53,313 nucleotides of DNA from an uncultured Bacteroidota bacterium (GCA_903847905.1 CAINEZ010000350.1:1-53313), one strand, 5' to 3'. Shown: positions 3,603 to 40,055, counted from the first letter of the stretch. The notes: a model not told the origin generated them from the letters alone. Program-made: numbers and translations.

Positions 3603-3606
3603 TACT

Positions 3607-13122: not shown

Positions 13123-13197
13123 TATTATCCAACCCTTGGTTCAGGTTCCACCTCCATCGAAATATTAAATGAGTAAATGATTCTAAACAAAATAAAA

Positions 13198-13252
13198 ATG
13201 GAGACCAGCAACCATTAAAAAACGGGGCGGAACCGAAAAGCCAGATGAGTAG
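13198..13252 (+). promoter_or_regulatory. conserved upstream element, copy E (short form, compensated stem)
   Basis: ATGGAGACCAGCAACCAT-TAAAAAACG-GGGCGGAACCGAAAAGCCAGATGAGTAGG. Both stem sides are changed relative to the other copies (GTGG/CCAC becomes ATGG/CCAT). Confidence 0.7.
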
Positions 13253-13283
13253 GAAATAAGCTGTTTAACTTAAAACTAAGAAC

Positions 13284-16629: not shown

Positions 16630-17208
16630 ATGAACAAATCAAACCCAACACAAAAAATCCTTACTATCGTTGCATCGGCAGTGATAATATTATCATTCTT
16701 TTTACCATGGGTGGCCACCTTTGGGCAAACTGTTTCGGCTGCTAAAGCAATTGAGCAAATTGCAGAGGCTCTAAAATATATTGACCAACTGCAAGATGAA
16801 CAAAAATTATATCTTTTAATCCCTATTTCGCTTTTAGTTATGCCAATATGTTCATTTATTATTTTAATAACAACTTCAACCTCACCAAAAAGCAGACCTA
16901 TGCCTTTTCCTAAAATTCTAATGGCAATTGTAATGACGATATATTTTGGATTTTTGATTTATGAAGAATCGAAAAATCCTTTTTCAAGCCATGGTGGTTC
17001 TATTTTTTCGATGCTTGGAATTGGATTTTATTTAACATTTTTAAACGTAATTTATTTATTTGTAACTGTTTTTTTGAAGGAAAAAGTGATTATAAAGAAC
17101 GTAAATAATGCTAATTTTGATGTGCAATTATATTGTTCGGGATGTGGCAAAAGTTACAATCCATCAAATGCAGGGAAATTTTGCACAAAATGCGGAACCA
17201 AATTGTAG
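16630..17208 (+). CDS. 4-TM membrane protein with C-terminal zinc ribbon
   Basis: Hydrophobic helices, then LYCSGCGKSYNPSNAGKFCTKCGTKL (CxxC-N13-CxxC). Confidence 0.7.
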   Translation: MNKSNPTQKILTIVASAVIILSFFLPWVATFGQTVSAAKAIEQIAEALKYIDQLQDEQKLYLLIPISLLVMPICSFIILITTSTSPKSRPMPFPKILMAIVMTIYFGFLIYEESKNPFSSHGGSIFSMLGIGFYLTFLNVIYLFVTVFLKEKVIIKNVNNANFDVQLYCSGCGKSYNPSNAGKFCTKCGTKL

Positions 17209-17244
17209 GTTATAAATAAGTGTTATTTTAATAAAACAACGATT

Positions 17245-17904
17245 ATGGAAAATCAAAATTTAAACTCTGAAAATTCACCAGTATTTGATAGTCATTCTTC
17301 AGTTAAAAATGTAATTGAAAAACGTCGTACATTTATTCCGATTTCTTTTGGTCTAATAATTATTATGTTTTTCTTTACATTCTGTACATTTAGTTGTGGT
17401 GGACAAAAAATAGATTCTGTTTCCGGTATTAACTTAGTAACAGGTACAAGAATAGAAAATAAAGATTCACAACAAAACCAAAGCCAAAACAATAATAATA
17501 ATGAAAAAATACCGGCAAATATGTGGGCATTTTTGGCATATAGTGCAGCGATAGTTGGTGCGATTTTCTTTTTATTTATAAAGAAAAAGGAAAGTTTAAT
17601 CGGTGTTATTGCAGGTGCCACTGGAGTTACTTCCTTGATAATATTACAAATTGTAATAAAAGGCGATGTTTATGGAAAATATAAAGACTCAATTACTGCG
17701 GATTTTAAATTTGGGTATTGGGCAGCTTTAATTTTATTTATTGTTGCAGGTGTATTATGTTTACTCCAATTAATAGAGGAGAATAAAACAAGCAAAACAT
17801 TAAGCCCAGTTAACAAATTGAAAAAATATTGTACTAACTGTGGAAAAGAATTAGAAAATAATTTTACTGGGCAGTTTTGTAAAAATTGTGGAAATAAAAT
17901 TTAA
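17245..17904 (+). CDS. membrane protein with C-terminal zinc ribbon
   Basis: TM helices and a Q/N-rich loop, then KYCTNCGKELENNFTGQFCKNCGNKI. Confidence 0.7.
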   Translation: MENQNLNSENSPVFDSHSSVKNVIEKRRTFIPISFGLIIIMFFFTFCTFSCGGQKIDSVSGINLVTGTRIENKDSQQNQSQNNNNNEKIPANMWAFLAYSAAIVGAIFFLFIKKKESLIGVIAGATGVTSLIILQIVIKGDVYGKYKDSITADFKFGYWAALILFIVAGVLCLLQLIEENKTSKTLSPVNKLKKYCTNCGKELENNFTGQFCKNCGNKI

Positions 17905-17919
17905 TTCAATAATAATCCT

Positions 17920-19608
17920 ATGAAAACATGCACTAATTGTAGTATTTCTTATCCCGATGACAAAAAGTTTTGTAAGAATTGTGGAAATCCATTGGTAGAA
18001 ACAGCTACTCAGGAAAATAAGGAAATTCTAAAAAAGAAGGTTGTAGTTAGGATACCTGATAAGAAACAGGCGAATAAAAATGATGATATACAAAGGATGG
18101 CTGATTTGTCTGAAATAGCAATATCTAAAGATGATTATGATGAAGCACTACTACTTATTAATAAAGGCCTTTTGATTGATCAGAATAATAAAAGCATTTT
18201 AGTAAAAAAAGCTGAGCTTTTATTTAAGATGAAAAATGAAACGGAATGTATTTCAACATGGAATAAAGTGTATGAATTAGATCCTGAAAATGTTTCCGCC
18301 TGCTTATTTCTTGGAATAGAAGCTGTGAAGTTTGAGGACTTTCAAAAAGCTTGCAATTTATTAGAATTGGTTATTTCGAAATCAAAAAATGAAAATGAAA
18401 AAAGCACTGCAATGTTCTATTGTGCATTTTCCATACTTAGACTAAATGTAGAAGATAAACGTCTGCCTTTTTTTATAATTCACTCAAAACTGGACTCATA
18501 TTTTGATACAGCCGATTCGTATCAAAAAAACATACTTGAAGAGCTATTATTTTTTTATGGTGATTATAATGTGCAGCAGAAAAACTACGAATCAGCAATT
18601 TATAATTTTGAAACGGCTTACCAATTAAATAAGGACAACAAATTTACATCTTTGATTGCTAATGCTTATTATAAACTGGCTAAGAACAAATTTGATTTAG
18701 GTGAAAGAAAAAATTCCAGAATAAATATTGAAAAAGCTCTCGCGCTTTTCCCAGGAAACAAAGAATATAGAAGTCTTCTCGAAAAGATTATTATACTTCA
18801 GAAAAAGAAAAAGAGAAAACTTATTATTGGGATAATTGTTGTAATGGTTTCAATAATATTAATATTGGTTGGTATATGGGTAAGCACTTTCTTGATTGAA
18901 AAAAATGCTTGGGATAAAGCACTAAGTGAAAACAAAATCGATTCCTATCAGAAGTATCTAAATACCTATCCCAACGGAAAATATATTGACGAAGCAAATC
19001 AAATGATATCTAAAACAGAAGCGATAATGATCGATTCTGTTGCCGAAGCAATTTTCGAAAGTATTCCAGATGCTAAAAAAAATACAATTACCATTAATTC
19101 AAAAGTAGAAGATATTTTAAAAGCTATTGGAAAAACAAATGAAGCTCTCCCTAACAAGAATAGTGGTGTTAATTCTTTTTCTACGGAGGAAAAAATATCA
19201 AAAAATATCATAAGTTCTGTTACTTATGGATTCAATTCTGATATTAAAGAGCCTATTAAAAAGATCACGGGTAAAAATTGGTATGGTGAACCAACATTCA
19301 TTATTTCCGGTTATCAAAATTCCACCAAAGCTTTATTTGATTCTTTTGATGAACAAATAAGACTTGATTCACAATTTGCAAGTAAAACGGAAGCAATATT
19401 AAAAGCAATTTGTGATAAAATAGAAAAAAGTGGATTTTCAAATTATTCTAAACAACAACAAAATAGTGATATAAAATGCTTTATTAACGAAAATGCTATT
19501 ATTATTGTAAAGAAAAGTGATAATTTGATTATAATTAGATATAATAATACAAATTTTATAGATTATTCAGATTTGTTACAAAGAGCAAAAGCAGGTATAA
19601 TTTACTAA
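17920..19608 (+). CDS. N-terminal zinc ribbon / TPR / TM / extracytoplasmic domain protein
   Basis: MKTCTNCSISYPDDKKFCKNCGNPL. TPR-like helical repeats cover about 250 aa. TM IIGIIVVMVSIILILVGIWVSTFLI, then the juxtamembrane module NAWDKALSENKIDSYQKYLNTYPNGKYIDEA. Confidence 0.75.
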   Translation: MKTCTNCSISYPDDKKFCKNCGNPLVETATQENKEILKKKVVVRIPDKKQANKNDDIQRMADLSEIAISKDDYDEALLLINKGLLIDQNNKSILVKKAELLFKMKNETECISTWNKVYELDPENVSACLFLGIEAVKFEDFQKACNLLELVISKSKNENEKSTAMFYCAFSILRLNVEDKRLPFFIIHSKLDSYFDTADSYQKNILEELLFFYGDYNVQQKNYESAIYNFETAYQLNKDNKFTSLIANAYYKLAKNKFDLGERKNSRINIEKALALFPGNKEYRSLLEKIIILQKKKKRKLIIGIIVVMVSIILILVGIWVSTFLIEKNAWDKALSENKIDSYQKYLNTYPNGKYIDEANQMISKTEAIMIDSVAEAIFESIPDAKKNTITINSKVEDILKAIGKTNEALPNKNSGVNSFSTEEKISKNIISSVTYGFNSDIKEPIKKITGKNWYGEPTFIISGYQNSTKALFDSFDEQIRLDSQFASKTEAILKAICDKIEKSGFSNYSKQQQNSDIKCFINENAIIIVKKSDNLIIIRYNNTNFIDYSDLLQRAKAGIIY

Positions 19609-19703
19609 TTTATTGAATAAATCCTAATTATATGACAAATTAAAAGGATTTTATATTTGCTTTAATAAATTAAAATGATTATTAATTTAATAGATTGAAA
19701 ATT

Positions 19704-20963
19704 ATGTACAAAAAAATTTCTTTTTCCATTGTATTTATTATTTCACTTAATTGTGTTAGCTTTTCACAAAATTTATTATTGGATATTCAGACTAAGAATT
19801 ATGAGCAAGCAAATTCGTATTTAATAAACAAGAAGAGTGGATGGAAATTTATTTCATCTGGTGTTAATTCTGACTTTTTTAATTACAACTATTATAAATG
19901 GTCATGTGATTATAATGCGAATACTAATGAGAATGATAGTTGGCTTAGTTTATGTCAAAAACCGGGTTATAAAAATGCAGTAATTTACAATACAACTAGT
20001 GAAAAATTCAAAATTTTCAAATCAACTATATCTAATGATAGTCATTGGAAATTTGTTGAATCAAGCCTAGATAAAAACGGGTTTGACCATATTTATTATA
20101 GTTGTTTAAACTTTTATATCGAATTTGTTGCATTGGAAAACAACCAGATATTGTTGTATAACAGTCAGGAAATTAAACAACAAATAGTAGAGAAAGAAAG
20201 ATCAGAATTTGTTGCTGATTCTATCGCTAAATTAGCTGAAGAAAAACGGATTAGAGACAAATATATACTGGATTCGATTATCGCAATCAAAGCTAAAAGG
20301 GAAAGTGATTCTATTAGGGAAGTTTTAAGAATTGAAGCAGCAATTGAGAAAAGAAATGTTCAAGGAAAAACCTATAACCTTCGGGATTTTGATATCTATA
20401 ATAAAATTTACTCAGGCATTATTACCGCAACTGCTGATTATTTAAAAACTATTCCATATGGAAAACGAATTAATGCAGTTTATAAAATCAATATATTAGT
20501 TGATACAAATAATATAGCTACTATTGAACCGGTTAATGACAATGGAAGTAATATCCCTTCTGAACTTTTAAGCTATCTTATTAAGTCATGTCAAACTTAT
20601 TATAATTCTTATCCTCGTATTAAGGGATATCATGTAAAAGCGGAAACAGATCTTTTATTGCCCATTGTTTACGAACAGGGTTCAGTAAAATTGTTTAAAA
20701 AAAAGAATGGAAAAATTAATTATAATAGAGGTAATCCTAGCCAGGAAATACATGGCGACATATATGGCAAGTTAAATAGCAAAGGCGTGTATTTTTTTGA
20801 TTATACTGAGCAGAAAATTGATAATAAAAGTAGCAATACTGTAACTCTGACTAATTATAAAAAAACAACCGTATTTCGTACTATTACAACAGTTTTTGGA
20901 AGTATCATCGGAATAGGAGGTTTGGTAACTATAGCTGTAATTACAGGAGCATTCTCCCAATAG
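19704..20963 (+). CDS. exported protein with C-terminal TM anchor, unknown function
   Basis: The track start at 19695 is TTG; the ATG at 19704 gives MYKKISFSIVFIISLNCVSFSQ (signal peptide). C-terminal TM TVFGSIIGIGGLVTIAVITGAF. Confidence 0.65.
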   Translation: MYKKISFSIVFIISLNCVSFSQNLLLDIQTKNYEQANSYLINKKSGWKFISSGVNSDFFNYNYYKWSCDYNANTNENDSWLSLCQKPGYKNAVIYNTTSEKFKIFKSTISNDSHWKFVESSLDKNGFDHIYYSCLNFYIEFVALENNQILLYNSQEIKQQIVEKERSEFVADSIAKLAEEKRIRDKYILDSIIAIKAKRESDSIREVLRIEAAIEKRNVQGKTYNLRDFDIYNKIYSGIITATADYLKTIPYGKRINAVYKINILVDTNNIATIEPVNDNGSNIPSELLSYLIKSCQTYYNSYPRIKGYHVKAETDLLLPIVYEQGSVKLFKKKNGKINYNRGNPSQEIHGDIYGKLNSKGVYFFDYTEQKIDNKSSNTVTLTNYKKTTVFRTITTVFGSIIGIGGLVTIAVITGAFSQ

Positions 20964-21035
20964 AGTTGGTTTAGAATAAGTTAAAAAAAATGCGATATAG
21001 TTGTATGAAAAGTTACTTAATGAAATAAAATAAAG

Positions 21036-22010
21036 ATGAAGACATGCACTAAATGCCTAATTTCTTATTCAAATAATAAAAAGTTCTGCAAGAAATGTGG
21101 GGCGATTTTAATTCCAGAAAATAATATTATTGAGCAAGAGGAGAATAATAATACAAATAACTTTATTAAAGAAAGCGGTTTAATTCCTGATGTTGAAACT
21201 TCTAAAGACCAAGTTTCACAAAAAGGGAATAAAAGTATCTTAAAGAAAATAATTATTATCGGCACCTCTTTTATTGCTGTATTTATTGTTGTAATTATCC
21301 TAGTCTTTTATTTCAGACAAAAAAGTGCCTGGAATGAAGCTGAACAAATTAATTCGATCAATTCATTTCAATCATACATAAATGATTATCCTACTGGAAG
21401 ATATGTTGATGAGGCTAAATTGAAAATAAAGCTAATCAATGAGTCTATTATAATACAAAGACAGCAAGCTATTCAAGACTCTATTGCTCATGTTCAAAAA
21501 GCAATTGCTGATTCTATTGCAGCAGTTGGGAAACAATCAAATATTACAATAAATCAAAAACCTTCCACATTGGCAATAAAAGGCATTAAAGTAAATATTC
21601 GTTCTTTTCCATCTTTAAGGTCAAATGTTATTTTTCAATTAAATACAGGTGATGTTTGTTATATAGTCGAAAAGGGTAATCTTGAAAATATAAATGGTAC
21701 ACCGGATTATTGGTTTAAAGTAAATTTCAACGGTAAAATAGGCTGGGTATTTGGGACGTTTACTAGTCTATCAACAATTAGTACCTCTTCAAATTCTTCT
21801 ACCTATAATGGAAATAAAACAGGAAAAGCTATTTATGATAGAGTTTATTTTTATTCATCCCCAAATTTAAACTCTCGATTGAATACATATATTGTTAGTG
21901 GCCAAAATGTTGAAATTATTTCGAATAATGGAGATTTTTGGAAAGTATCTTTTACATTTAATAATAAAACAACTAATGGTTTTATTAGGAAAATGGATCT
22001 CAGTTTGTAA
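21036..22010 (+). CDS. N-terminal zinc ribbon / TM / SH3b-like domain protein
   Basis: MKTCTKCLISYSNNKKFCKKCGAIL. TM, then SAWNEAEQINSINSFQSYINDYPTGRYVDEA. The SH3b-like segment is VNIRSFPSLRSNVIFQLNTGDVCYIVEKG...YWFKVNFNGKIGWVFGTF, with a second similar unit. Confidence 0.7.
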   Translation: MKTCTKCLISYSNNKKFCKKCGAILIPENNIIEQEENNNTNNFIKESGLIPDVETSKDQVSQKGNKSILKKIIIIGTSFIAVFIVVIILVFYFRQKSAWNEAEQINSINSFQSYINDYPTGRYVDEAKLKIKLINESIIIQRQQAIQDSIAHVQKAIADSIAAVGKQSNITINQKPSTLAIKGIKVNIRSFPSLRSNVIFQLNTGDVCYIVEKGNLENINGTPDYWFKVNFNGKIGWVFGTFTSLSTISTSSNSSTYNGNKTGKAIYDRVYFYSSPNLNSRLNTYIVSGQNVEIISNNGDFWKVSFTFNNKTTNGFIRKMDLSL

Positions 22011-22087
22011 ATATTATTAAATTGTAAATCAAATTAGATTAGTTTATTATTAATGCAAGAATTTATGTTAATCTTATTTAATACAAT

Positions 22088-23149
22088 ATGAAGACATGTC
22101 CAAGATGCCATATTCAATATCCTGAGGATAAGAAATTTTGTAAGAAATGCGGCGAATTGCTGGTTTTAGATTATTCAACAGAATCTTCAAAGATTAAATC
22201 AGAAATTAATCCTATAAAACAAATCACAGTTAAAGAGACTGTTCTAGCAAATAGCAACAGTAAAAAAATAATATTAAAGGCTATATCTATAGGAGTTTCT
22301 GTTATAGTGGTTGCCTTGATTGCAATTTTTATGATTATTTACTTTAAACAAAATAGTGCCTGGAAGGATGCAAAAGAAAAAAATTCAATTAATTCTTTTC
22401 AAGCTTATATCAATGATTATCCTAATGGAAGGTATGTTGATGAAGCAAAAAGTATTATTAAAGCAAAAGATGACTCTATTGCAGGTGCGCAGATGATTAT
22501 GGCTATTCATGATTCAATTTCCGCTGCAAAAAAATCGTTAGATAATGGGCAGGGTTTAAATATACTAATTGGAACATGGAAGGGCCCTTTTAATAAAAAA
22601 ACAATGGAATTGGTAGTTAATAGTGTTATTGATAATTCAGTTGCAGGCTATGATGTCTTAAATGGCAAAAAAAGACCATTTACAGGTACTTATTATGAAA
22701 ATGGTAATAGTTATAGTTTGACTTTAAATGAGCCTGGTGATGATAATGGAGATGGGAAATTTGAATTGAGCATTGACAAATCATCAAATATTATTACGGG
22801 ATATTGGAAACTATTTAAAGGTTCATTGAATTATAGTTTTAGTTTTAATAAAATAAATACCATTAATATTAACCAAAATGGAAATTCAAATAATAATAGT
22901 ATATATGGCCTTTATCCACAAGCCTCTGAAAAATTGCTTTATGCATCAGATTTGAGAGACCTAAACAAATATGATTTGAAAATTATGCGAAATGAAGTTT
23001 TTGCTCGCCATGGTTATATTTTTAAGACACCTGATATGATTTCATACTTCCAAAAGCAATCGTGGTATCGAGGTCAGTATAATGATGTAGCCTCAATGCT
23101 TACAATAATTGAAAAGAAGAATATTGAATTAATAAAAAAGTATGAATAA
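22088..23149 (+). CDS. N-terminal zinc ribbon / TM / YARHG-domain protein
   Basis: MKTCPRCHIQYPEDKKFCKKCGELL. TM, then SAWKDAKEKNSINSFQAYINDYPNGRYVDEA. C-terminal MRNEVFARHGYIFKTPDMISYFQKQSWY (YARHG motif). Confidence 0.75.
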   Translation: MKTCPRCHIQYPEDKKFCKKCGELLVLDYSTESSKIKSEINPIKQITVKETVLANSNSKKIILKAISIGVSVIVVALIAIFMIIYFKQNSAWKDAKEKNSINSFQAYINDYPNGRYVDEAKSIIKAKDDSIAGAQMIMAIHDSISAAKKSLDNGQGLNILIGTWKGPFNKKTMELVVNSVIDNSVAGYDVLNGKKRPFTGTYYENGNSYSLTLNEPGDDNGDGKFELSIDKSSNIITGYWKLFKGSLNYSFSFNKINTININQNGNSNNNSIYGLYPQASEKLLYASDLRDLNKYDLKIMRNEVFARHGYIFKTPDMISYFQKQSWYRGQYNDVASMLTIIEKKNIELIKKYE

Positions 23150-23903
23150 ATTTATTTTAATTAGTATAATATTCCTTTTGGGTTGCTCATTTAATGAAGC
23201 AAAAAACCAAGAAGCGAAAGATTGTAAAAATGTTATAAAATCTCCCCCAACTGGTAAATGTGTTGATTTTAATTCACTAAATAATAAAATACGTGATTGT
23301 TTAATTTCAAAGGAGGATGCTTTGAAACAAATTCAAATTTTGCTACCAGAATTAAAAATATATTTTTACAAAAATGGTGGCCAGGATTTTGCTAAATCTA
23401 ATTGGGTTTTTCCAGTTCAAGGTTATACTGCAAAATCTATCGGTGGGTCAAATGGAAGCGGGTACATTGATACAGGTTACGATTATTTTGATGGCAACAA
23501 ACATAAAGGCCATCCAGCGCAAGATATCTTTATTTTTGATAAAAATCAGGACTGCATTAGTGATATAACAAAAAAGCCTGTAAATGTTCTTTCGATGACA
23601 GGGGGGATTGTTATTGCGACTGAAACAATATGGGATTCGACCAGCGACTTAAGAGGAGGAAAATATATTTGGATTTATGACCCATCTACTAATAACTTTT
23701 TTTACTATGCACATAACAGTAAAGTTTTGGTTCATCCATGCAATATCGTGAAACCAGGTGACACAATAGCCACGGTTGGTAGAACGGGTTTAAATGCTTT
23801 TAAAAAACGATCACCTACACATCTTCATTTAATGCAACTTAAACTTGATGATAGAAGTTATCCCAGCCCGGTTAATTGTTATAAGGATTTAATATTATTA
23901 TAA
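23142..23903 (+). CDS. M23-family metallopeptidase lipoprotein
   Basis: Lipobox FLLGCS. HxxxD in KGHPAQDIF and HxH in PTHLHLM, plus GDTIATVGRTG. The start overlaps the previous stop by 8 nt (ATGAATAA). Confidence 0.8.
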   Translation: MNKFILISIIFLLGCSFNEAKNQEAKDCKNVIKSPPTGKCVDFNSLNNKIRDCLISKEDALKQIQILLPELKIYFYKNGGQDFAKSNWVFPVQGYTAKSIGGSNGSGYIDTGYDYFDGNKHKGHPAQDIFIFDKNQDCISDITKKPVNVLSMTGGIVIATETIWDSTSDLRGGKYIWIYDPSTNNFFYYAHNSKVLVHPCNIVKPGDTIATVGRTGLNAFKKRSPTHLHLMQLKLDDRSYPSPVNCYKDLILL

Positions 23904-23928
23904 TTAGTTGAACCTAATATTATTGAAT

Positions 23929-25623: not shown

Positions 25624-25724
25624 GAAAAAAATAACTTAAAAAAAAGTATTTAATATTTTATAAATGAGTACATTTGGAGTATAAAATTTATTAAAAAATA
25701 GAATTTTAACTAAAAGCTTATTAT

Positions 25725-27002: not shown

Positions 27003-27075
27003 CACAGATAATATTATTGTATGAAATTTTTTGTTGAGTTGAAAATTAATAGTTTATATTCTAACAGACAATATT

Positions 27076-27795
27076 ATGAAACCAAATAAACTTTTCACTA
27101 TTTTGCTTCTACTATTTGGAGAAGCATTGATTATTATAGGTTTTTTATATTTTGCGAAAAACCTTGAACTCAAAATATTAATACTAAATATAGCTGTAAC
27201 ATCGATTTTATATTTTGTCTGTTTTGTCTACTTTTCAGATAAAATCATTCCAATTGTTGATATAAAAGAGAAATCTCATAGTTCAGTTGGTTCCCTCGGA
27301 ATAAAATGGGTCTTTGTTACCATATATGCAATACTGGCCATTGGGGCTATGCTAATATTAAACACAGTTAAACCACTTGGTTTTACAGGGCAAATTATTA
27401 TTCAAGGAGTAATTTTATTCATTCTATTGCTCGGGATATATTTTTCTATTTACGCTTCAAATAAAGTCCATGAAGTTTATACTGAAGAGAAGCAAAATCG
27501 CAGTCGTATTGGTGATATGAAAAAAGCAACAAACGATGTAAAGTTGAGGATAGACCAAATGAAAGGTATGCCAGCAGATTTAATTGTGAGAATTACTACA
27601 TTATTGGATAATATGCGATTCATTTCTCCTGGAGATAACAATGATGCAATTGTTTTAGAAACAGATTATTTAAAAGAAATCAAAACAGTTCATGATTGTT
27701 TGTTTGAAATTCCCATTAATTATGAAAAGATTACGGAGAATATTTCCAATTGTGAGCGAGTCTATAATGAAAGAAAAAAAGTGTACTCAAATTAA
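27076..27795 (+). CDS. 4-TM membrane protein with helical cytoplasmic C-terminal domain
   Basis: Four hydrophobic helices in the first 125 aa or so, then a charged helical domain. The next ATG lies 23 nt downstream. Confidence 0.65.
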   Translation: MKPNKLFTILLLLFGEALIIIGFLYFAKNLELKILILNIAVTSILYFVCFVYFSDKIIPIVDIKEKSHSSVGSLGIKWVFVTIYAILAIGAMLILNTVKPLGFTGQIIIQGVILFILLLGIYFSIYASNKVHEVYTEEKQNRSRIGDMKKATNDVKLRIDQMKGMPADLIVRITTLLDNMRFISPGDNNDAIVLETDYLKEIKTVHDCLFEIPINYEKITENISNCERVYNERKKVYSN

Positions 27796-27818
27796 TAATA
27801 ATCTTAAACTTCAAAAGC

Positions 27819-30230
27819 ATGAAAGGTAAAATTTTTGCGGAATCAAGTAATATCTACCAGGATCAGGCGAAGATATTATTTAACTATTATCAGCAAATGG
27901 CTGAAAAGATAGTTCTAGAAGAAGAAAACACGGAAAAAGAGATCGCTAAACTGGAAGAAGAAAAAACAGTCTTAGAAAAAGATTTATCAAATGCCAAACT
28001 TTGGAAATGGGTGCTTTGCATTTTTATCATCCCTTTTATTTATTTTTTATTAAGAGAAAAAAATCTAATTACCCAAATAAGTGCACTTGAAGAAAGGATA
28101 GCTGAATATCAAAAACTGCACAAAGAAATATTCAGAGATTACAAAGTCAGTAAATTAGGGATAGCCTATGTGCCTGTTGCTAGTCAATTTAAATATGAAA
28201 ATAAGAGCTTTATTGTTGACCATACAGGAATGGTTGGAGAATCAGAGGTAAAGCTACAATTATCAAAACAAAATGATTTATTGATCGAAAAAATTGAAGA
28301 TTTGGAAAAATTGTCTTCAGAGGCCCCATTGGTTGAAAGTTCAAATGAAACTGAGGAAATTGATACTGAGAAATATTCACTTTCTATGCAGCAATTAAAT
28401 CAGCATGATTATTTTGGAAATCTGGAACGCTCACTAAGGACTATTTCATACTGTATGGATGATTTGGATGTTACATCAGTTTCATTACCTCTGGTTGCTA
28501 ACAATAGCCCTTACCTAAAATTTATCAATGAATATTCAACAACAGAGATCCCAGAGGGAGCACCTGTTTTTGAAGTTTTCGATACTAAAAAATATAATGA
28601 TGATATTGCAAAATTTCAGGAACTTAATAAATTAAAAGATTCACTTTCAAAAAATACTGCACAATTTGAAGATGTTTTAAAGGGTCTTATGGTTACTATG
28701 GCTAATTCTGTTCAGGCAATTTCGGCACTTAAAGTTGCTTCAACAGATAAGATTATATTTGAATCAAATAAAGTATTATTCAAAATTTTAAAATCCCCTT
28801 ATAATCATTACTCCCCAGTATTAGAAGCCGGAGAAATTGAAAGAATCAGAAATGAAAACTTTAATTATGGAGATTCGGTGCAGGATTATGTTCCTTTTCA
28901 ATTAAAAGATAGTTCGCGTGTAAAATACAATTTGTTATCCGATGCATGGGTTGCAGAAGATGGAAGTTCAACGAACTTCCCTTTTGGAATTCATCAGATA
29001 CACGAAGAAATTGTCGCTCCTATGGTACAGAATTTAATGAATGAGACGCGTATTGAAAGATTGAAAATATACAACCATATTAAAGACCAAAAGATAAGCT
29101 ATCTGAATAAATGGCACCAGGATACAGAAGATTTTTACGGTAGAAATCGGGCCGAAAGTGCAGATTTAATCAATTTAATGCGAGCAAGTTTGAGGGATTA
29201 CATAGCCGCCTATAATACATTTGCCGCACTTAAAAATACTGAAAATAGCATGACGGCATCAAAAGTATCAAGGGATTCTGATATCGAAGGAGAAAATGAT
29301 AATTCAGTTGGTTTATTAGATTCAACTGTTGTAACAGTAAATGATAATTCCGCTGAAGTATTGGCTGCTTTTGACATGCAATCAAAAGAATTTCAAAATG
29401 TTCAACTTGATTTTGAGGATTATATGGAGCGCCTCAAAGAGGATATTGATCAAAAAGCAGAAAAATTTGAGCATATTGATTATTATGATGCCCTCCTTCG
29501 AGATGGAAATTCAAAAGATACTGCTGTTGCAACAAATGAAATGCAAAAATTAGATGAAAGGAGAAAACCACTTATTTCGGTTAATCCTCTTTTTGCAAAA
29601 AATTCAGAAATGCCACCGATACCAAGCGTTGAAGATATTACATATGAGCACATCTCACTCAACTTGCCGGTAATAGCCAGAAATGCCCTTAAGGATCTTG
29701 ATGATGATTTAAGTACTGAATCAATAAATGACGATAATAATGGAGGACCAAAGATTGGAAGTCCCATTGAAAATAATGACGTAAAAGATGATGTTGAATC
29801 TGGCACATCCATCGAAAAATACTTTTGTACTGATTGTGGAGCAGAGTTAACATCGGATACTACTATTTGCACGGATTGTGGGGCCAAGATTGATACTGTT
29901 AATGAGGATAAAATGAATGAAGCCGAAAAAGTTCCCAACACAATAAATGAAGAACAGAATTTGGACGAAACTAAACAGTTTTTCTGCCCTGAATGCGGTT
30001 CAAAAGTCACATCAGATTCAAAACATTGTCCGGAGTGTGGAATTGAATTAAAGGTTGAAGAATTTGAGGAAAATGATATTAATCAGGAAAATCAAAGTGA
30101 AGAAGAAGCAGGACAATTTTTTTGCCCTGAATGTGGTATCAAGGTGACAACAGAAGTAACAATTTGTCCGGGTTGCGGCACTGAACTTAGTTTTGATGAA
30201 GACGATGAAGATAAAAAAATTAATAATTAA
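27819..30230 (+). CDS. 803-aa coiled-coil protein with one hydrophobic segment and three C-terminal zinc ribbons
   Basis: N-terminal coiled coil (EKEIAKLEEEKTVLEKDL), then the hydrophobic segment LWKWVLCIFIIPFIYFLL. The C-terminus carries YFCTDCGAELTSDTTICTDCGAKI, FFCPECGSKVTSDSKHCPECGIEL and FFCPECGIKVTTEVTICPGCGTEL, separated by acidic linkers. No P-loop is seen. Confidence 0.75.
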   Translation: MKGKIFAESSNIYQDQAKILFNYYQQMAEKIVLEEENTEKEIAKLEEEKTVLEKDLSNAKLWKWVLCIFIIPFIYFLLREKNLITQISALEERIAEYQKLHKEIFRDYKVSKLGIAYVPVASQFKYENKSFIVDHTGMVGESEVKLQLSKQNDLLIEKIEDLEKLSSEAPLVESSNETEEIDTEKYSLSMQQLNQHDYFGNLERSLRTISYCMDDLDVTSVSLPLVANNSPYLKFINEYSTTEIPEGAPVFEVFDTKKYNDDIAKFQELNKLKDSLSKNTAQFEDVLKGLMVTMANSVQAISALKVASTDKIIFESNKVLFKILKSPYNHYSPVLEAGEIERIRNENFNYGDSVQDYVPFQLKDSSRVKYNLLSDAWVAEDGSSTNFPFGIHQIHEEIVAPMVQNLMNETRIERLKIYNHIKDQKISYLNKWHQDTEDFYGRNRAESADLINLMRASLRDYIAAYNTFAALKNTENSMTASKVSRDSDIEGENDNSVGLLDSTVVTVNDNSAEVLAAFDMQSKEFQNVQLDFEDYMERLKEDIDQKAEKFEHIDYYDALLRDGNSKDTAVATNEMQKLDERRKPLISVNPLFAKNSEMPPIPSVEDITYEHISLNLPVIARNALKDLDDDLSTESINDDNNGGPKIGSPIENNDVKDDVESGTSIEKYFCTDCGAELTSDTTICTDCGAKIDTVNEDKMNEAEKVPNTINEEQNLDETKQFFCPECGSKVTSDSKHCPECGIELKVEEFEENDINQENQSEEEAGQFFCPECGIKVTTEVTICPGCGTELSFDEDDEDKKINN

Positions 30231-30250
30231 TTTTCCCAAATTTAGTAATT

Positions 30251-31165
30251 ATGGCAACATTTAATTATACAGTCGATACTCAGCCAATGGCTGAGGAAAT
30301 GAGCAGTGTTTCGCGACATGTTAACGTAACTACCGGTGCTGTTGTAGCAATGCAAACTTCATTAATTGCCGCAGAAGCAAGTGCTGCTGATCACATTTGT
30401 GAAAATGTTAATAAGGGTTTTTATTCTCTTATCCGGTCTCAGATTTCACAAAAAATGGCAAAGTTAAAAAGTGATGTAGACTCCCATTTAATGCAATTAG
30501 TTCAACAAAAAAAGGCCTTATTAAGTATTAAAAGCAGAATGTCTCGTGATTATAATATGATAGCAAATCGGTACAATAAACTCTTCAATAGCCTAAATGC
30601 GAATCTTAAACACAGGGTTTTTGAACTCGACAAGCCAACAATTGATTTTGCATGCAAGGAAATAGATAAAGTTTCGAACCGTACAAAATATTTAACGGCG
30701 ACAATTCCTATAACTCAATTAGAATCAATTTCGTTGAGCCAAAAAATAATTGCTTCAAATGTAAAGAAAAGAGGCTTTAATGTAATAAATTCCATGAAAG
30801 GCTTTATTCATGAAATGAACCTCCAAAAAAAGTTAACGGACCAGGTATTAATTGATAATAATAATATTATTAAAGTCGGAACATCATCTATCCCAATTTT
30901 AGTTTATGAATGCAACAGGGATAGAACAGAAAATAAAAATATTGATATTATTGTGCCAGTAGTTGAATTAGACAATATCACTGTATGTTCTATAAAAAAT
31001 AAAGCCTATAGTGAATTCTCGCAATTAAATTGGAATAATGAAACTAAACCAGCTCCAGAGGTATATGAAGAGTTCAGTAAATTATTGGCAATATCCTCTA
31101 AATCATCCCAAATAAAGGATTTAGCATTACAATTGTTTCAATCTAACAAGTATCAAACCATTTAA
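30251..31165 (+). CDS. unknown protein, paralogue A of tandem pair
   Basis: It shares with the next gene VDTxP...ENVN...A.V...GFYxxIRSxISQ...HLM.L......K..M..DY..I..RY.K.F..LN..L..R..ELD.P. The central region is helical. Confidence 0.65.
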   Translation: MATFNYTVDTQPMAEEMSSVSRHVNVTTGAVVAMQTSLIAAEASAADHICENVNKGFYSLIRSQISQKMAKLKSDVDSHLMQLVQQKKALLSIKSRMSRDYNMIANRYNKLFNSLNANLKHRVFELDKPTIDFACKEIDKVSNRTKYLTATIPITQLESISLSQKIIASNVKKRGFNVINSMKGFIHEMNLQKKLTDQVLIDNNNIIKVGTSSIPILVYECNRDRTENKNIDIIVPVVELDNITVCSIKNKAYSEFSQLNWNNETKPAPEVYEEFSKLLAISSKSSQIKDLALQLFQSNKYQTI

Positions 31166-31176
31166 TTGTTACGGAT

Positions 31177-32208
31177 ATGAGTTATACAAGAAGATATAGT
31201 GAAACTGTTTCCAAAACGATAACTGTTTCTTATCCAGAAGTCAAAGGAGGGGGGAGTAAATCTGTAACAGTTGATATTCCAATTGATGTGAATATCCATG
31301 TTGACACCAATCCATTTGATCAGAGCGTTGAACATTGTGGGGAAAATGTAAATCTACTTACTGCTGCTGTAGTGGCAACAGAATCTGCTGAAATTATCTC
31401 TAAAAAGAAAAATTCGGTTAAAGTTGCAAATTCTATTATTGGCGGTTTCTATGGTTATATTCGTTCAGAAATCAGCCAGCAAATTGCTGAATTGAGTCAA
31501 AACATTGATGCTCATTTAATGCATCTTAAAGAATTGGCACAATCCTGTTTTGCGAAAAAGAAACAGATGGAAACAGATTATCATAGAATTACCAGTCGGT
31601 ATGTAAAGATTTTTGAAGACTTGAATAACGAGTTATCTAATCGAATACATGAATTGGATAGGCCTTCATTTGTTTTTAAAAAAGAAACTGATAATCAAAA
31701 AATCAGAACTACCGACAACCAATTGGTTAATACAGTTGCAATAGGAGGGGCTGAAAGTGGAAGTTTACAGTCAAGAATTGGTGCATCATTAGCCAAAAAA
31801 CGCGCATTTGATGCTTTATGCAAGGCAAAGTCATTTCTATTACAGCAAAAGCAATTAAATACTACCATTCAGCGGAGTATGTTTAATGAAAGTGTTACTA
31901 ATTCAATTTATACTCCTATTTGTTTTATTGAAAAAAATAATGTTGGCAATCAATCTGATAAAACTGTCTTTACTCTGGAATACTTATCTATGCTTAAGGA
32001 AAATCTACAAAAAATTGCATTGATTGAGCATTTTTCTGCAAAATCAATAACATGGAATAAACTTTCTCAAGATGATCAAAAATCTATAGGATTATATTTT
32101 GACACTGAGCTTAATAATAATTCTGCAAATGATATACATTCCGAACGTGTCAGGGATATGATACGGAAGTTAGCAAACCTAAGTTCAATTAAAGTAATAA
32201 ATTATTAA
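31177..32208 (+). CDS. unknown protein, paralogue B of tandem pair
   Basis: GFYGYIRSEISQQIAELSQNIDAHLMHLKELAQSCFAKKKQMETDYHRITSRYVKIFEDLNNELSNRIHELDRP aligns with the same region of 30251..31165. The intergenic gap is 11 nt. Confidence 0.65.
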   Translation: MSYTRRYSETVSKTITVSYPEVKGGGSKSVTVDIPIDVNIHVDTNPFDQSVEHCGENVNLLTAAVVATESAEIISKKKNSVKVANSIIGGFYGYIRSEISQQIAELSQNIDAHLMHLKELAQSCFAKKKQMETDYHRITSRYVKIFEDLNNELSNRIHELDRPSFVFKKETDNQKIRTTDNQLVNTVAIGGAESGSLQSRIGASLAKKRAFDALCKAKSFLLQQKQLNTTIQRSMFNESVTNSIYTPICFIEKNNVGNQSDKTVFTLEYLSMLKENLQKIALIEHFSAKSITWNKLSQDDQKSIGLYFDTELNNNSANDIHSERVRDMIRKLANLSSIKVINY

Positions 32209-32219
32209 AATATAATATT

Positions 32220-33194
32220 ATGAAAGAATTAAAAGAAGTCCGGTATAACGAAACAAATATTCAACTTAAAGATAATTTAGTAAAAGGGTCAATTTTACCC
32301 GAAAAAATTGCTGAACTCGATAGAACAATAACCATTCAAGGTAATGCAATAATTGAGGGTGCCGTTTATGCCCATAAATTGGAGATTCAGCAAGGTGATA
32401 CTGAAATCCATGGAGCAGTGTTTACCCAACTTGAAATGTATGTTAATAGTGAGGCAAAAGGGAATATCTTTTTCAAAAAGAGTGTTGGTTCTGCAAATTC
32501 TATTGTTTCCAGAGCACTAAATTGTCATTTAATGTTTTACTCTGATATAAATGCTAAAAGTGTAACCCTATACAATGCATTTATAGCTGGCAGTATTTAT
32601 GCAGATGAAATAATTTTACAAAACTGCGTGGTTATTGGAGGTGTTTTTGCAACACAGAACATAGATATTACTAATTCTATTGTTGGGACATTTAATACCC
32701 CTTCAATAAAAGTAGCACAACAACTATGGCTTTTACTACCAAGTGCGTTTTCAATTGAAAAAATTATTACTGTACCCGGCACAAAGTTCTACAATTTAAG
32801 TTTAGCAGATCTTGGGTCCCTATATAAAGGGATGGTACAGTCAGTTAATTCTGGTAAGATAGAGATGAATATTGATACTGACGAAGTGAAAACGACACTG
32901 ACTAGTGAAGATATGCAGAAGACGATACGGAGTTATACTGTAGTTGGAAAAGTATTAGCAGCTGATCTATTAGATTTTGATAAATTTCAAAATCATTTTT
33001 TACTAACTGCTGCCAGTTTAGGTTCTCAACTACTTAAGAATTATGATCTGGGAGTTGATGATAAAGGGAAACCAGTTACGCTTTCATTTGAAAAAATCAG
33101 GGATTTCTTTTTTGGAATATTACATGGTAAAATTGAAGTGCAAGAAATTGATGGGAAGTTTGATATCTCTGATATTACAGGAAAATTCAATTAA
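32220..33194 (+). CDS. beta-helical repeat protein, bactofilin-like (putative polymer-forming)
   Basis: Periodic small/hydrophobic pattern ITIQGNAIIEGAVYAHKLEIQQGDTEIHGAVFTQLEMYVNSEAKGNIFFKKSVGSANSIV...IAGSIYADEIILQNCVVIGGVFATQNIDITNSIVG, typical of bactofilin or Toastrack-like beta-helices. It is the last gene of the operon. Confidence 0.45.
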   Translation: MKELKEVRYNETNIQLKDNLVKGSILPEKIAELDRTITIQGNAIIEGAVYAHKLEIQQGDTEIHGAVFTQLEMYVNSEAKGNIFFKKSVGSANSIVSRALNCHLMFYSDINAKSVTLYNAFIAGSIYADEIILQNCVVIGGVFATQNIDITNSIVGTFNTPSIKVAQQLWLLLPSAFSIEKIITVPGTKFYNLSLADLGSLYKGMVQSVNSGKIEMNIDTDEVKTTLTSEDMQKTIRSYTVVGKVLAADLLDFDKFQNHFLLTAASLGSQLLKNYDLGVDDKGKPVTLSFEKIRDFFFGILHGKIEVQEIDGKFDISDITGKFN

Positions 33195-33215
33195 TATTGT
33201 GTAATTGTATTAGAG

Positions 33216-33881
33216 CTATTTTTGAATTTTCTTTTTTATATTCTTATAATTCTTCACAAAATCACCATAGCATTTAACCTGCTTGAATTGTTCTTTATAA
33301 ACAGAATCTTCCTCATATAAGAAACCCATGCTGCACGATAATTGCCCGCAATCCTCCGTTAAAATATCAGTATAATATTTGTTTTCATCATCTTTTGATA
33401 GAATAACGACTATATCTCCGCTCCATCTGCCTTCAGGATCATCACTGTAATTGAAAACGGAAATAACATCTTTGTTACCCAATAAAGTAAACCACTCCAC
33501 TTCGAAATAATAATCCGCTCCAGCAAAATTATAAAGAAATCCTGCCTGAGTGCCACTTCCATCCGTATATTTTCTGAAAAACAATTTCCGAAAAGCAGAT
33601 GTTTTTAACTCCCGCCCACTAGTATAGATTTTATCAATTTTTTGGGTAGCTTCATGCGCAATTTTTAAATTGCACATCTTATCTATAAGCTCGTCCGATA
33701 AATCACTGCTTTTGTTTTGGCACAAAGCATAAACTTTTTCCGTTGTGCATCTATCTGTGTTTGCATCCTTGTAAGAGCTTGTTGTATCTGTTTTATTTAT
33801 TACGGTATCCGGCTTTTTGGTGTTGGAGTGGCATGAACAAATTACGCAAATAAATAATATGAATAAGATTTTGAAGTTCAT
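33216..33881 (-). CDS. lipoprotein, unknown function
   Basis: Lipobox in MNFKILFILFICVICSCHSN. It is convergent with the + strand block. Confidence 0.65.
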   Translation of the reverse strand: MNFKILFILFICVICSCHSNTKKPDTVINKTDTTSSYKDANTDRCTTEKVYALCQNKSSDLSDELIDKMCNLKIAHEATQKIDKIYTSGRELKTSAFRKLFFRKYTDGSGTQAGFLYNFAGADYYFEVEWFTLLGNKDVISVFNYSDDPEGRWSGDIVVILSKDDENKYYTDILTEDCGQLSCSMGFLYEEDSVYKEQFKQVKCYGDFVKNYKNIKKKIQK

Positions 33882-33884
33882 TTT

Positions 33885-34517
33885 TTATTTTTTTGATAAG
33901 TAATAAATTACTAATATTATTGCACCAATAATGAGAAAAATTATAGTTCTCCTAAATCTTCTTGCTCGTTTTTCTTTCTCAATCCTATCGTCTTCTTCAA
34001 TTTTTAAAAATTCTTTTGTTAATTGTTCATCAGTATATTCATCCCAAATTTTATTCTTTAGGTAAATATAAAAAACAATAGAGGAGATAATACCAATAAT
34101 TAATAGAGAAATACCAAGCCATTGTTTAATTGCGAATCCAATTACTGTTATCCAAAATGCAGCAGCAAAAAAATTGATAATTGCTTCATTTTTCCAAAAA
34201 AGTTTCTTTCTTACTCTGTTTTTTTCTTCGTAACTCAATTCTTTTCTGTGACAAAATGGGCAAACTAAGGCGTTCTCATTAATCAATTCTTGACAAAAGT
34301 TACAATTTTTTTTATTTTTTCGTTCATCCCTTTCTAATTTCATTTTCTCCAAAAAAGCACCTAATTTTTGCTCATCCAGCGAGCCATAATTGTTAAATAC
34401 TTTGTCACGAAAATGCAACCAATCCTCATGAGTCCATCCGTTTGGATGTATATATAAAAAATCATCAATCTCCGGACCTTTTTTGATTTTAATAAAAATT
34501 TCTTCCTGATATTCCAT
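33885..34517 (-). CDS. zinc-ribbon membrane protein
   Basis: CNFCQELINENALVCPFCHRK, followed by two or three TM helices. Confidence 0.65.
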   Translation of the reverse strand: MEYQEEIFIKIKKGPEIDDFLYIHPNGWTHEDWLHFRDKVFNNYGSLDEQKLGAFLEKMKLERDERKNKKNCNFCQELINENALVCPFCHRKELSYEEKNRVRKKLFWKNEAIINFFAAAFWITVIGFAIKQWLGISLLIIGIISSIVFYIYLKNKIWDEYTDEQLTKEFLKIEEDDRIEKEKRARRFRRTIIFLIIGAIILVIYYLSKK

Positions 34518-36271: not shown

Positions 36272-36682
36272 CTAGTTTATGCATCCATTACTACATCCAG
36301 GAGAAAATCCGCCACTATCGGCAATCTTTTCCCAGGTTCTAGTCTTAGCAGTTGTATTAAATATTAACCTTCCTTTAATCCAATAACTGGCACCAGAAAT
36401 TGATCCAGTCCACGATGCCATCATTGTGATTGTGATATTTCCAGTTAATTTACTAATTCTTGTTTGGCAAGTTCCATTACCATCGGCATCCCAATAAACA
36501 GTTGCTTGTAAATTGTTACCGCCCCATTTCGAACAACAACTCATCAAGTTACTTGCTGCCTGATTTGCCAAATCCTGAATTTCAGATTTCGCATCAGGGT
36601 CATTTTTTAATTCAGAACAATCTTGTGCTTTAACGCCCATTGTCCATATCAACATCCAAAAAATTAAAAAAACTTTTTTCAT
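36272..36682 (-). CDS. small secreted Cys-containing protein
   Basis: Signal peptide MKKVFLIFWMLIWTMGVKAQ. Element copy G lies upstream. Confidence 0.65.
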   Translation of the reverse strand: MKKVFLIFWMLIWTMGVKAQDCSELKNDPDAKSEIQDLANQAASNLMSCCSKWGGNNLQATVYWDADGNGTCQTRISKLTGNITITMMASWTGSISGASYWIKGRLIFNTTAKTRTWEKIADSGGFSPGCSNGCIN

Positions 36683-39927: not shown

Positions 39928-39979
39928 GATGGTTTTTTTATTTTGAATTGAAAATTAGTTATTTTTGAGGTACAATAAA

Positions 39980-40037: not shown

Positions 40038-40055
40038 AAATTTATAATAAGAAAA

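Follow-up and report, generated by a model that had tools for sequence, protein, structure and literature searches.

In Bacillus subtilis, YdjI, which is made up of an SPFH domain, a linker and a zinc finger, reaches the membrane only with YdjG and YdjH, and then recruits PspA. YdjG contains two zinc ribbons, an NTF2-like domain and a transmembrane (TM) segment, the three Ydj proteins depend on one another for membrane localisation, and without YdjG or YdjH cell-wall synthesis is misplaced under stress (PMC8581546; PMC11237479; bioRxiv 10.64898/2026.02.06.704340). Proteins with the layout ribbon-TM-YARHG, in which YARHG is thought to bind peptidoglycan, have also been described, and were proposed to be membrane-tethered transcription factors (Coggill and Bateman 2012, PMC3355149). 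In Haloferax, the zinc ribbons of CdpC bind FtsZ1 and tether it to the membrane, and mutations in the zinc sites abolish binding (bioRxiv 10.64898/2026.07.16.738847). Here, we analysed a complete metagenome contig of 53,313 nt from an uncultured Bacteroidota bacterium (GCA_903847905.1 CAINEZ010000350.1:1-53313, referred to throughout as the window), in which nine proteins with 14 zinc ribbons are encoded within 18 kb (16630-34517). Rather than a single conserved locus, this ribbon-dense region is made up of three neighbouring modules, A, B and C, each conserved separately. The window has a G+C content of ~30 %, and its relatives are mostly Bacteroidales and other Bacteroidota.

Zinc ribbons are found at the ends of thousands of bacterial membrane proteins. 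We know of no tested function for these terminal ribbons, and suggestions in the literature extend from DNA binding to no specific role. Ribbons in the window were identified using the pattern CxxC-N(8-20)-CxxC, applied to the translations, in six frames, of all open reading frames (ORFs) of 60 aa or more. Matches were confined to nt 17134-34304, and the 14 ribbons in nine proteins agree exactly, in number and position, with a preliminary description of this DNA. The products of 16630 and 17245 (genes are named by their lower coordinate) have a single C-terminal ribbon, and those of 17920, 21036, 22088 and 23929 a single N-terminal ribbon of the form MKTC(T/P)xC...KFCKxCG. Eight CxxC motifs in the 25725 product form four ribbons (aa 325-420), the 27819 product has three (aa 670-786) and that of 33885, on the minus strand, has one (aa 72-89). 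In all 14, the two CxxC knuckles are 10-13 residues apart. The ribbon density was confirmed. None of the remaining 26 genes in the window encodes a ribbon (Fisher p = 2.6e-5), shuffling of the 42 window proteins 1000 times gave a mean of 0.024 ribbon proteins and a maximum of 1, against 9 observed, and the background in the distal flanks of 80 related genome loci is ~1 % of ORFs (4/395). The ribbons of 25725 and 27819 exceed the Pfam gathering cut-off, and the single ones at protein termini reach 18-23 bits where 25 are required. All 14 are Zn_Ribbon_1/DZR-type Cys4 ribbons, and are predicted to bind zinc. The domain names given in the preliminary description were also borne out by Pfam, with two SH3_3 domains for the SH3b-like part, YARHG, four GldM domains, and Band_7_1 for SPFH. 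The genes of the three modules, and the remaining ribbon gene, are listed below.

16630-17208, plus strand: module A; protein of 192 aa with four TM segments (4-TM) and a C-terminal ribbon (nt 17134-17193)
17245-17904, plus strand: module A; second 4-TM protein, 219 aa, with a C-terminal ribbon (nt 17830-17889)
17920-19608, plus strand: module A; N-terminal ribbon (nt 17929-17982), TPR region, one TM segment, the segment following it (AW segment), and a C-terminal domain without assignment
19695-20963, plus strand: module B; 422 aa, N-terminal hydrophobic segment and C-terminal TM segment, no ribbon, no Pfam match
21036-22010, plus strand: module B; N-terminal ribbon (nt 21045-21098), TM segment, AW segment, two SH3_3 (SH3b) domains
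22088-23149, plus strand: module B; N-terminal ribbon (nt 22097-22150), TM segment, AW segment, YARHG
23142-23903, plus strand: module B; M23 peptidase (Pfam Peptidase_M23) with a lipoprotein-like N-terminus, no ribbon
23929-25623, plus strand: module B; N-terminal ribbon (nt 23938-23991), TM segment, GldM_1st to GldM_4th
25725-27002, plus strand: module C, gene 1; soluble SPFH protein (Band_7_1) with a Gly/Gln/Asn-rich linker and four C-terminal ribbons (nt 26697-26750, 26769-26822, 26853-26906 and 26931-26984)
27076-27795, plus strand: module C, gene 2; 4-TM protein of 239 aa, C-terminal part predicted to be cytoplasmic, no Pfam match
27819-30230, plus strand: module C, gene 3; 803 aa, N-terminal coiled coil, one hydrophobic segment (aa 60-78), acidic variable tail with three ribbons (nt 29826-29879, 29985-30038 and 30123-30176)
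30251-31165, plus strand: module C, gene 4; 304 aa, mostly helical, paralogue of gene 5
31177-32208, plus strand: module C, gene 5; 343 aa (343-355 aa across loci), helical paralogue of gene 4
32220-33194, plus strand: module C, gene 6; 324 aa, N-terminal beta-helix of ~170 aa, bactofilin-like
33885-34517, minus strand: ribbon protein of 210 aa, ribbon (nt 34251-34304) followed by three TM segments

Module C (25725-33194) is an operon of six genes. It is present in at least 173 species genomes, and the 80 of these that were listed are mostly Bacteroidota. Among these 80, the carriers are Bacteroidales, Alistipes, Muribaculaceae, Capnocytophaga, Flavobacteriales and Chitinophagales, with a few Melioribacteraceae/Ignavibacteriae, and metagenome-assembled genomes (MAGs) labelled Saccharibacteria or Pseudobacteroides. 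Cultured carriers are Capnocytophaga sputigena (NCTC11653), Capnocytophaga granulosa (ATCC 51502) and Labilibaculum filiforme. Across the 80 species-representative loci, and in JGI and NCBI contigs, the genes follow a fixed order (SPFH protein with ribbons, 4-TM protein, large protein, 304-aa protein, its 343-355-aa paralogue, 324-aa protein). All six are intact in 53 loci, nearly all of the others are shortened, consistent with contig ends, and a few have split or duplicated ORF calls. No description of this operon was found in the literature searched.

By its architecture, the gene 1 product is a YdjI/SamI-type SPFH protein (Band_7_1, COG4260-like). The Band_7_1 domain (PF13421) covers aa 39-226 (E = 3.9e-35; 121.8 bits against a cut-off of 24), the linker rich in Gly, Gln and Asn covers aa 265-320, and the tail matches DZR, Zn_Ribbon_1 and Zn_ribbon_3 above their cut-offs. 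There is no hydrophobic or TM segment, and no solved structure was detectable by sequence. The four-ribbon tail is a conserved feature of this SPFH protein, its eight CxxC motifs being retained in 62 of 64 homologues. Gene 2 has a homologue at the equivalent position in 72 loci. The gene 3 product is membrane-anchored and ranges from 720 to 800 aa across operons, and the 80 listed genomes share 60-86 % identity over its core (to ~aa 627). Used as the query in an exhaustive phmmer search, the core recovered only relatives of the same length, down to ~35 % identity, with no informative fused domain besides sporadic ribbons. In distant homologues (35-48 % identity), these ribbons are either N-terminal (P0256, P0258 and P0262) or C-terminal (P0255), which shows repeated ribbon gain. 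It also suggests that both ends of the protein are cytoplasmic, in which case the single hydrophobic segment would be a re-entrant anchor.

The products of genes 4 and 5 are 36 % identical over 192 aa. An AlphaFold 2 (AF2) model of the gene 4 product consists of long helices (predicted local distance difference test score, pLDDT, 71; predicted template modelling score, pTM, 0.25), and the PDB held no match to it by fold or by sequence. The possibility that these two proteins are PspA/ESCRT-III members was rejected, as there was no Pfam hit, hhalign gave a probability of 0.1 % against Escherichia coli PspA, and there was no PDB neighbour (for a model with a pTM of only 0.25). Gene 6 shows the highest conservation within the operon (78-89 % identity). 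Its product matches Bactofilin (PF04519) below threshold (17.7 against 27.9 bits), and the same weak match was seen in 32 of 32 homologues. The AF2 model is a beta-helix (pLDDT ~90 over aa 20-160, pTM 0.76), and comparison with the PDB gave generic beta-helix matches, none of them significant to a bactofilin. As in bactofilins (CcmA/BacA), the N-terminal domain is modelled as a right-handed beta-helix, and some homologue entries are named CcmA. However, the helix is longer (~170 aa) and is followed by an additional ~150 aa of low-confidence structure. Five of the six operon proteins fall below the Pfam curated thresholds, counting the sub-threshold Bactofilin of gene 6, four belong to no recognisable family, and the operon encodes no recognisable enzyme. 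PDB sequence searches with the products of genes 1, 3, 4 and 6 returned nothing usable. NCBIfam and PADLOC contained no family for ten products (the six operon proteins, 33216, 33885, 19695 and 16630), for which the only defence-protein match in PADLOC was a marginal one to MTase_II (E = 0.0099).

Module C resembles the pspA-ydjGHI (samGHI) system in that the gene 1 product has the YdjI/SamI architecture (Band-7 domain, low-complexity linker, C-terminal zinc finger and no anchor), and YdjI is co-operonic with a ribbon-bearing membrane protein, YdjG, and another membrane protein. However, only the SPFH component is shared. None of the operon products matches PspA_IM30 or Snf7, nor was there a match to TPM_phosphatase or YpeB-like domains, representing the YdjH and YdjG types as Pfam models rather than as the B. 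subtilis sequences themselves. The gene 1 product has four ribbons where YdjI has one, and its partners are four proteins without a known family and a bactofilin-like beta-helix. In HflK/C-FtsH, QmcA-YbbJ (SPFH-NfeD) and the flotillins FloA/FloT, the SPFH protein is likewise encoded with membrane partners and an oligomeric membrane-microdomain scaffold would be expected, but the gene 1 product has neither TM segment nor hairpin, has no NfeD or protease partner, and falls in the Band_7_1 branch (PF13421).

The operon appears to be horizontally mobile. Its coding DNA is 85-92 % identical between a Chitinophagales MAG (L029; loci are referred to by L numbers) and Labilibaculum filiforme and a Bacteroidales MAG (L021 and L030), and nucleotide identity of 85-91 % between orders points to recent horizontal transfer. 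In the window, the G+C content of the operon is 0.33 and that of the surrounding DNA 0.27-0.30. The genes found 5' of the operon vary between loci, examples being thioredoxin genes accompanied by an integrase, a TonB-like gene, an AAA ATPase gene and genes for ribosomal proteins. As neither IMG/VR nor PLSDB contained a match, a phage or plasmid origin was rejected. The integrase in Labilibaculum lies two genes 5' of the operon. The window also contains a tyrosine integrase gene (46517-47761, minus strand; Phage_int_SAM_5 and Phage_integrase), located ~12 kb downstream of the ribbon stretch.

Conserved non-coding DNA brackets the operon in many other loci (L029, L021, L048, L014, L050, L007/L008, L019, L027, L030 and L058). 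An upstream element of ~290 nt ends at the SPFH start codon (L029 7883-8182; L021 8782-9073), and a downstream element of ~225 nt starts ~15 nt past the last stop codon (L029 15306-15532; L021 16290-16514). Identity between copies of these elements is 84-92 %, even for a pair of loci (L029 and L048) in which that of the coding DNA is only 66-70 %, and L029 has a second copy of the downstream element upstream of the operon. Neither element matched Rfam, and for the upstream element there was no covariation support for an RNA structure. The window carries neither element. No Rfam family was found within 14500-35500, and a promoter and terminator scan performed no better than on shuffled sequences, using a sigma-70 consensus that is unsuited if the host belongs to the Bacteroidota, as its relatives suggest.

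Module A (16630-19608) was examined by a reverse search, in which a profile of the ribbon-TM-AW module was compared with metagenome contigs, and this retrieved 58 loci. Of 57 informative cases, 26 (in 24 of 42 informative loci) have a multi-TM gene with a C-terminal ribbon directly 5' of the N-terminal-ribbon gene, with intergenic gaps of 6-35 nt and no SPFH operon nearby. The N-terminal-ribbon gene usually encodes a ribbon-TPR-TM protein of 600-735 aa with a variable outer domain, the gene preceding it belongs to the 16630/17245 family, and another C-terminal-ribbon gene, with two TM segments, is often found ahead of these. In its general form, the module has one or two genes for small multi-TM proteins with a C-terminal ribbon, ~20 nt 5' of the ribbon-TPR-TM gene. 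As the same arrangement recurs in metagenome loci, 16630-17245-17920 is one instance of a conserved cassette of ribbon genes, with no dependence on the SPFH operon. It is undescribed in the literature searched. The 16630 product is a member of a widespread family of 164-195 aa with four TM segments and a C-terminal ribbon, and homologues were found in 22 metagenome loci, usually 18-35 nt 5' of an N-terminal-ribbon gene. The 17245 product has weak DZR/Zn_ribbon_15 matches and homologues in 19 metagenome loci, and the 17920 family was found in 38, with variable periplasmic ends (Laminin_G_3, MORN and SecDF_P1). In 17920 itself, Pfam detected Zn_Ribbon_1 and TPR, the TPR region covers aa 50-290 and the single TM segment aa 301-319, and the AW segment reads AW..A..N.I.SYQ.YLN.YP.G.Y.DEA. 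The TPR segment named in the preliminary description is confirmed, with the correction that it precedes the only TM segment, and so is presumably on the cytoplasmic side with the ribbon.

In four loci (L096 10994-12760, with equivalents in L095, L098 and L124), a gene for a secreted caspase-like protein (Peptidase_C14 and CARDB) lies 3' of the ribbon cassette, and further conserved genes without assignment follow it in loci of this type. Just upstream of the ribbon stretch in the window is a gene for a MORN-repeat protein (14913-16475, plus strand), preceded by two genes (11491-13122 and 13284-14717, plus strand) for paralogous WG_beta_rep proteins that are 47 % identical and have eight repeats each. 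Relatives of the MORN-repeat and WG-repeat proteins were also found in some ribbon-cassette loci.

Sequence comparison shows module B (19695-25623) to be a tandem array, specific to this lineage, of ribbon-TM-X paralogues, the outer parts of which are predicted to bind or cut the cell wall, or are GldM-like. The window paralogues share the ribbon and the segment following the TM segment; 21036 and 22088, for example, are 44 % identical over 162 aa. Homologues of 21036 were found in L073, L009 and L089, and L089 also has a 90 % identical homologue of 19695. In the 22088 product, the ribbon is at aa 4-21, the TM segment at 66-84 and YARHG at 275-353 (Pfam E = 2.6e-24). The 3' end of its gene overlaps the start of the M23 gene, 23142, by 8 nt, and this pair is retained in L009, L073 and L089 with 72-89 % identity. 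The layout of 22088 (N-terminal ribbon, one TM segment, C-terminal extracellular YARHG) matches exactly that of the proteins described by Coggill and Bateman. However, theirs are from Gram-positive bacteria only and have a pair of ribbons, whereas 22088 has a single ribbon, its nearest relatives are in Bacteroidales, it is translationally coupled to an M23 gene, and it is one of a paralogous array.

The true start of 23929 is the ATG at 23929, and all four GldM domains of its product score above their cut-offs. It resembles GldM of the type IX secretion/gliding motor in having an N-terminal TM segment and four GldM periplasmic domains, but differs in the additional N-terminal ribbon. Its neighbours are the M23 peptidase and SPFH genes, and no GldK, GldL or GldN family member was found among 40 window products scanned with Pfam (36272-36682 and 49745-53245 excluded). 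In L073, the closest relative, there is no GldM-like gene at the equivalent position, between the M23 and SPFH genes. Together, the extra ribbon, the lack of gldK, gldL and gldN, and the absence in L073 indicate a GldM-like paralogue.

The ribbons are probably on the cytoplasmic face of the inner membrane. The preliminary description placed them there in every membrane protein, and a crude count based on hydropathy and the positive-inside rule is consistent with this, but is ambiguous for 22088, with 3 K/R ahead of the TM segment and 4 behind it. Two subtypes of ribbon can be distinguished, an N-type with the consensus ktC.kCnisY.ddKKFCKkCG..L and a C-type with the consensus fC..CGK.y.....G.FC.eCGnK. 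Positions other than Cys are kept within each subtype (K2, Y11, K16, F17, K19, G22 and L25), an indication of specific binding surfaces and not simply of zinc knuckles.

As neighbours of the operon, ribbon-TM genes are facultative and have been recruited repeatedly. ORFs with a ribbon were found at position +1 relative to the operon in 6/58 cases, at -1 in 2/56, at -2 in 2/51 and at +2 in 1/52, compared with 4/395 at three or more positions away on either side (p = 0.004 within two positions, 5e-4 at +1). Nearly all of the adjacent ribbon proteins are encoded on the same strand as the operon, and have an N-terminal ribbon and one TM segment. Outside the ribbon, they belong to at least six unrelated families, namely proteins with the AW segment, TonB_C, SH3_3 with a 17-residue ribbon spacer, SLT_2 lytic transglycosylase, DUF805, and a family without assignment in L025 and L028. 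Inherited synteny cannot explain this diversity, which argues for repeated independent recruitment. A cell-wall theme is apparent in the domains involved (SH3_3, YARHG with M23, SLT_2, TonB_C and SPOR). The genes SH3b-like, ribbon-TM-YARHG and M23 are directly 5' of the SPFH gene in L073, ribbon-TM, ribbon-TM-YARHG and M23 are directly 3' of the operon in L009, and a ribbon-TPR-TM protein is at position -1 in L056. The block of ribbon-TM-YARHG and M23 is therefore 5' of the operon in the window and L073, and 3' of it in L009.

The presence of such neighbours also co-varies with ribbons in the tail of gene 3. Of the five genome loci with tail ribbons (L009, L010, L017, L025 and L028), four adjoin a ribbon-TM gene and L017 is too short to judge, whereas a ribbon-TM neighbour is found in 5 of 74 loci without gene 3 ribbons (p = 4e-4). 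The prediction that every ribbon-bearing gene 3 homologue adjoins a ribbon-TM gene was examined in three new contigs, and one (L150) agreed with it and two (L148 and L149) did not. In L150, the ribbon gene at +1 is interrupted by an IS66 element, and there is a ribbon-TonB_C gene at -6. Overall, including the window, a ribbon-TM neighbour is present in 6 of 8 loci with gene 3 ribbons and 5 of 74 without.

We favour, at about an even chance, a reading in which three modules share a class of ribbon, module C is a sub-membrane scaffold, and the ribbons are contact modules whose coupling to the scaffold is facultative. The module C proteins would assemble a scaffold under the membrane, as YdjI does with YdjG and YdjH in B. 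subtilis, and the ribbons would be small cytoplasmic modules for protein-protein contact. Envelope proteins, both single-pass and multi-pass, would use them to associate with one another, as in module A, and in some lineages, including that of the window, ribbon proteins would also join the SPFH scaffold. Such an association would couple cell-wall-facing domains (SH3b, YARHG with M23, GldM-like) to a cytoplasmic platform. If so, the ribbon would be a shared, reusable adaptor and not a tag dedicated to the operon. On the scaffold side, the evidence is the Band_7_1 match and lack of a TM segment in 25725, the beta-helix model of 32220 and the long helices of 30251. CdpC offers an analogy for the action of the ribbon only, as it is archaeal and non-homologous, binds FtsZ1 and has no SPFH partner.

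A number of observations weigh against this reading. The term scaffold derives from the SPFH and beta-helix components and the absence of enzymes, in an operon where four of six proteins have no family, and the cytoplasmic position of the ribbons derives from a crude estimate of topology. None of the 80 genome loci has a homologue of 16630, 17245, 19695 or 33885, and homologues of 17920, 21036, 22088 and 23142 occur in only 3-4 of the 80, on either side of the operon, so the notion of a locus whose composition is conserved in relatives did not hold. The 33885 gene, on the opposite strand and convergent with the operon, has no homologue in 138 related loci. About 15 % of operon loci have an adjacent ribbon gene and ~85 % do not. 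Non-ribbon operon genes were found in 0/58 of the reverse-search loci, and ribbon ORFs are clustered there (118/492), independently of SPFH. Tail ribbons on gene 3 are present in only 5 of 73 species representatives, and L148 and L149 have them without an adjacent ribbon-TM gene. The co-variation counts are small and come in part from related lineages (the window and L009, L025 and L028, L010 and L150), and in L011, L078 and L149 the single-pass neighbours carry another N-terminal module in place of the ribbon. The preliminary description saw the ribbon as a docking tag for the SPFH scaffold. This predicted docking is partly supported by the conserved four-ribbon SPFH tail, the enrichment of neighbours and their unrelated families, the co-variation, the ribbon gains in distant gene 3 homologues and the YdjG/YdjI precedent; the majority of operons without a ribbon neighbour, the rarity of gene 3 tail ribbons, and the reverse-search loci without the operon, speak against it.

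Several of the same findings would fit plain juxtaposition, in which generic ribbons of a tandem-duplicated ribbon-TM family happen to lie beside a horizontally acquired SPFH operon that has ribbons itself, and modules A and B have no functional link to C. We consider this less probable than a facultative coupling, though a serious contender. It would account for the lack of conservation of the locus, the cassette in 58 loci without the operon, the rarity of tail ribbons on gene 3, the higher G+C content of the operon, and the recent transfer indicated by its inter-order identity. However, it does not predict that ribbon-TM genes are enriched at +1, -1 and -2 relative to the distal flanks, that at least six unrelated families have been recruited, that neighbours co-vary with tail ribbons, or that the same block is beside the operon on opposite sides in L073 and L009.

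The enrichment, the ribbon gains, the co-variation and the diversity of families would also favour the strongest form of docking, in which all nine proteins are one system and the envelope modules plug into a multi-ribbon scaffold made of the 25725 and 27819 products. Although multi-ribbon tails could provide several docking sites, this form is unlikely, as neither 33885 nor modules A and B show conserved linkage to the operon, 27819 tail ribbons and ribbon-TM neighbours are both missing from most operons, and module A is a self-contained cassette elsewhere. A little less likely again is that the ribbons are not binders, but are either fast-folding topology determinants that hold one end of the protein in the cytoplasm, or zinc or thiol-redox sensors of envelope stress. 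Cys4 sites can serve as redox switches, and the ribbons are always at the extreme N- or C-terminus beside a TM segment. However, surface residues other than Cys are conserved in each subtype, four tandem ribbons on a soluble protein require no topology signal, and the genes for the two subtypes are strictly adjacent. Finally, it is very improbable that the ribbons are membrane-tethered nucleic-acid-binding or transcription-factor modules that pass an outside signal (via YARHG or SH3b) to DNA or RNA, as published for ribbon-TM-YARHG (PMC3355149) and in keeping with the zinc ribbons of other proteins that bind nucleic acids, because a lone 22-aa ribbon with no helix-turn-helix or other DNA-binding domain in Pfam (and the TPR in 17920) is all that precedes the TM segment, a soluble SPFH protein has four ribbons of the same type and 4-TM proteins have them C-terminally, and no regulator or sigma-factor gene was found among the Pfam-scanned genes of 16630-34517.

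The reading of ribbons as facultative contact modules could be taken further, to a modular docking code, ribbon-to-ribbon or ribbon-to-scaffold, in which the N-type (MKTCxxCxxxYxxxKKFCKKCG) pairs with the C-type (FCxxCGKx7GxFCxxCGxK), and an undescribed six-gene SPFH/bactofilin-like scaffold gathers cell-wall-facing proteins into membrane platforms via multi-ribbon tails. We regard this extended version as doubtful. The main value of the locus is that it turns terminal zinc ribbons into specific testable pairings, for which there are three handles, namely the adjacent gene pair with the two subtypes, the near-invariant four-ribbon tail of the SPFH protein, and the lineages that pair gene 3 ribbons with ribbon-TM neighbours. 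Ribbons aside, the operon is a highly conserved, horizontally spread, membrane-associated system, and would bring Gram-negative bacteria into the YdjI/SamI paradigm of SPFH-based envelope stress platforms.

Arrays of single-pass proteins are found 3' of the operon in L011 (15359-19066), L149 (10415-15745) and L078 (+1). Their N-terminal cytoplasmic module is not a ribbon, but a repeated IEKIYKDYNPDKIS..ILEKYKGKE.ELL.KISEKY, which has no Pfam match and is followed by a TM segment and YARHG or SPOR; it may be an alternative adaptor to the ribbon. In a Bacteroidales MAG (L018 226-3231, plus strand), positions -5 to -2 relative to the operon include two genes for small membrane proteins with Prok-RING_1 and a ribbon, and one for a protein of 515 aa that combines a UQ_con (E2-like) domain with seven Cys-pair motifs. 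These may constitute a ubiquitin-like conjugation module.

Elsewhere in the window, the DUF805 RNA motif (Rfam RF03081, cis-regulatory) is present in five copies, all on the plus strand (8055-8124, 8466-8558, 10064-10133, 13193-13259 and 39975-40043), with scores of 54-86 bits against a gathering cut-off of 51. None was found inside 14500-35500, even at E <= 1. The copies are just 5' of plus-strand genes for small or envelope-type proteins (8141, 8544, 10153 with DUF4852, 13284 with WG_beta_rep, and 40029 with DUF4852 and MORN_2), and those at 8466-8558 and 39975-40043 overlap the listed gene start by ~15 nt. At the left end of the window, four consecutive ORFs without a Pfam match (83-3990, plus strand) are followed by genes for a 797-aa Tubulin_2 (PF13809) protein (E = 2e-47) and a trypsin-like peptidase, and this region (83-7167, plus strand) is a separate uncharacterised gene cluster.

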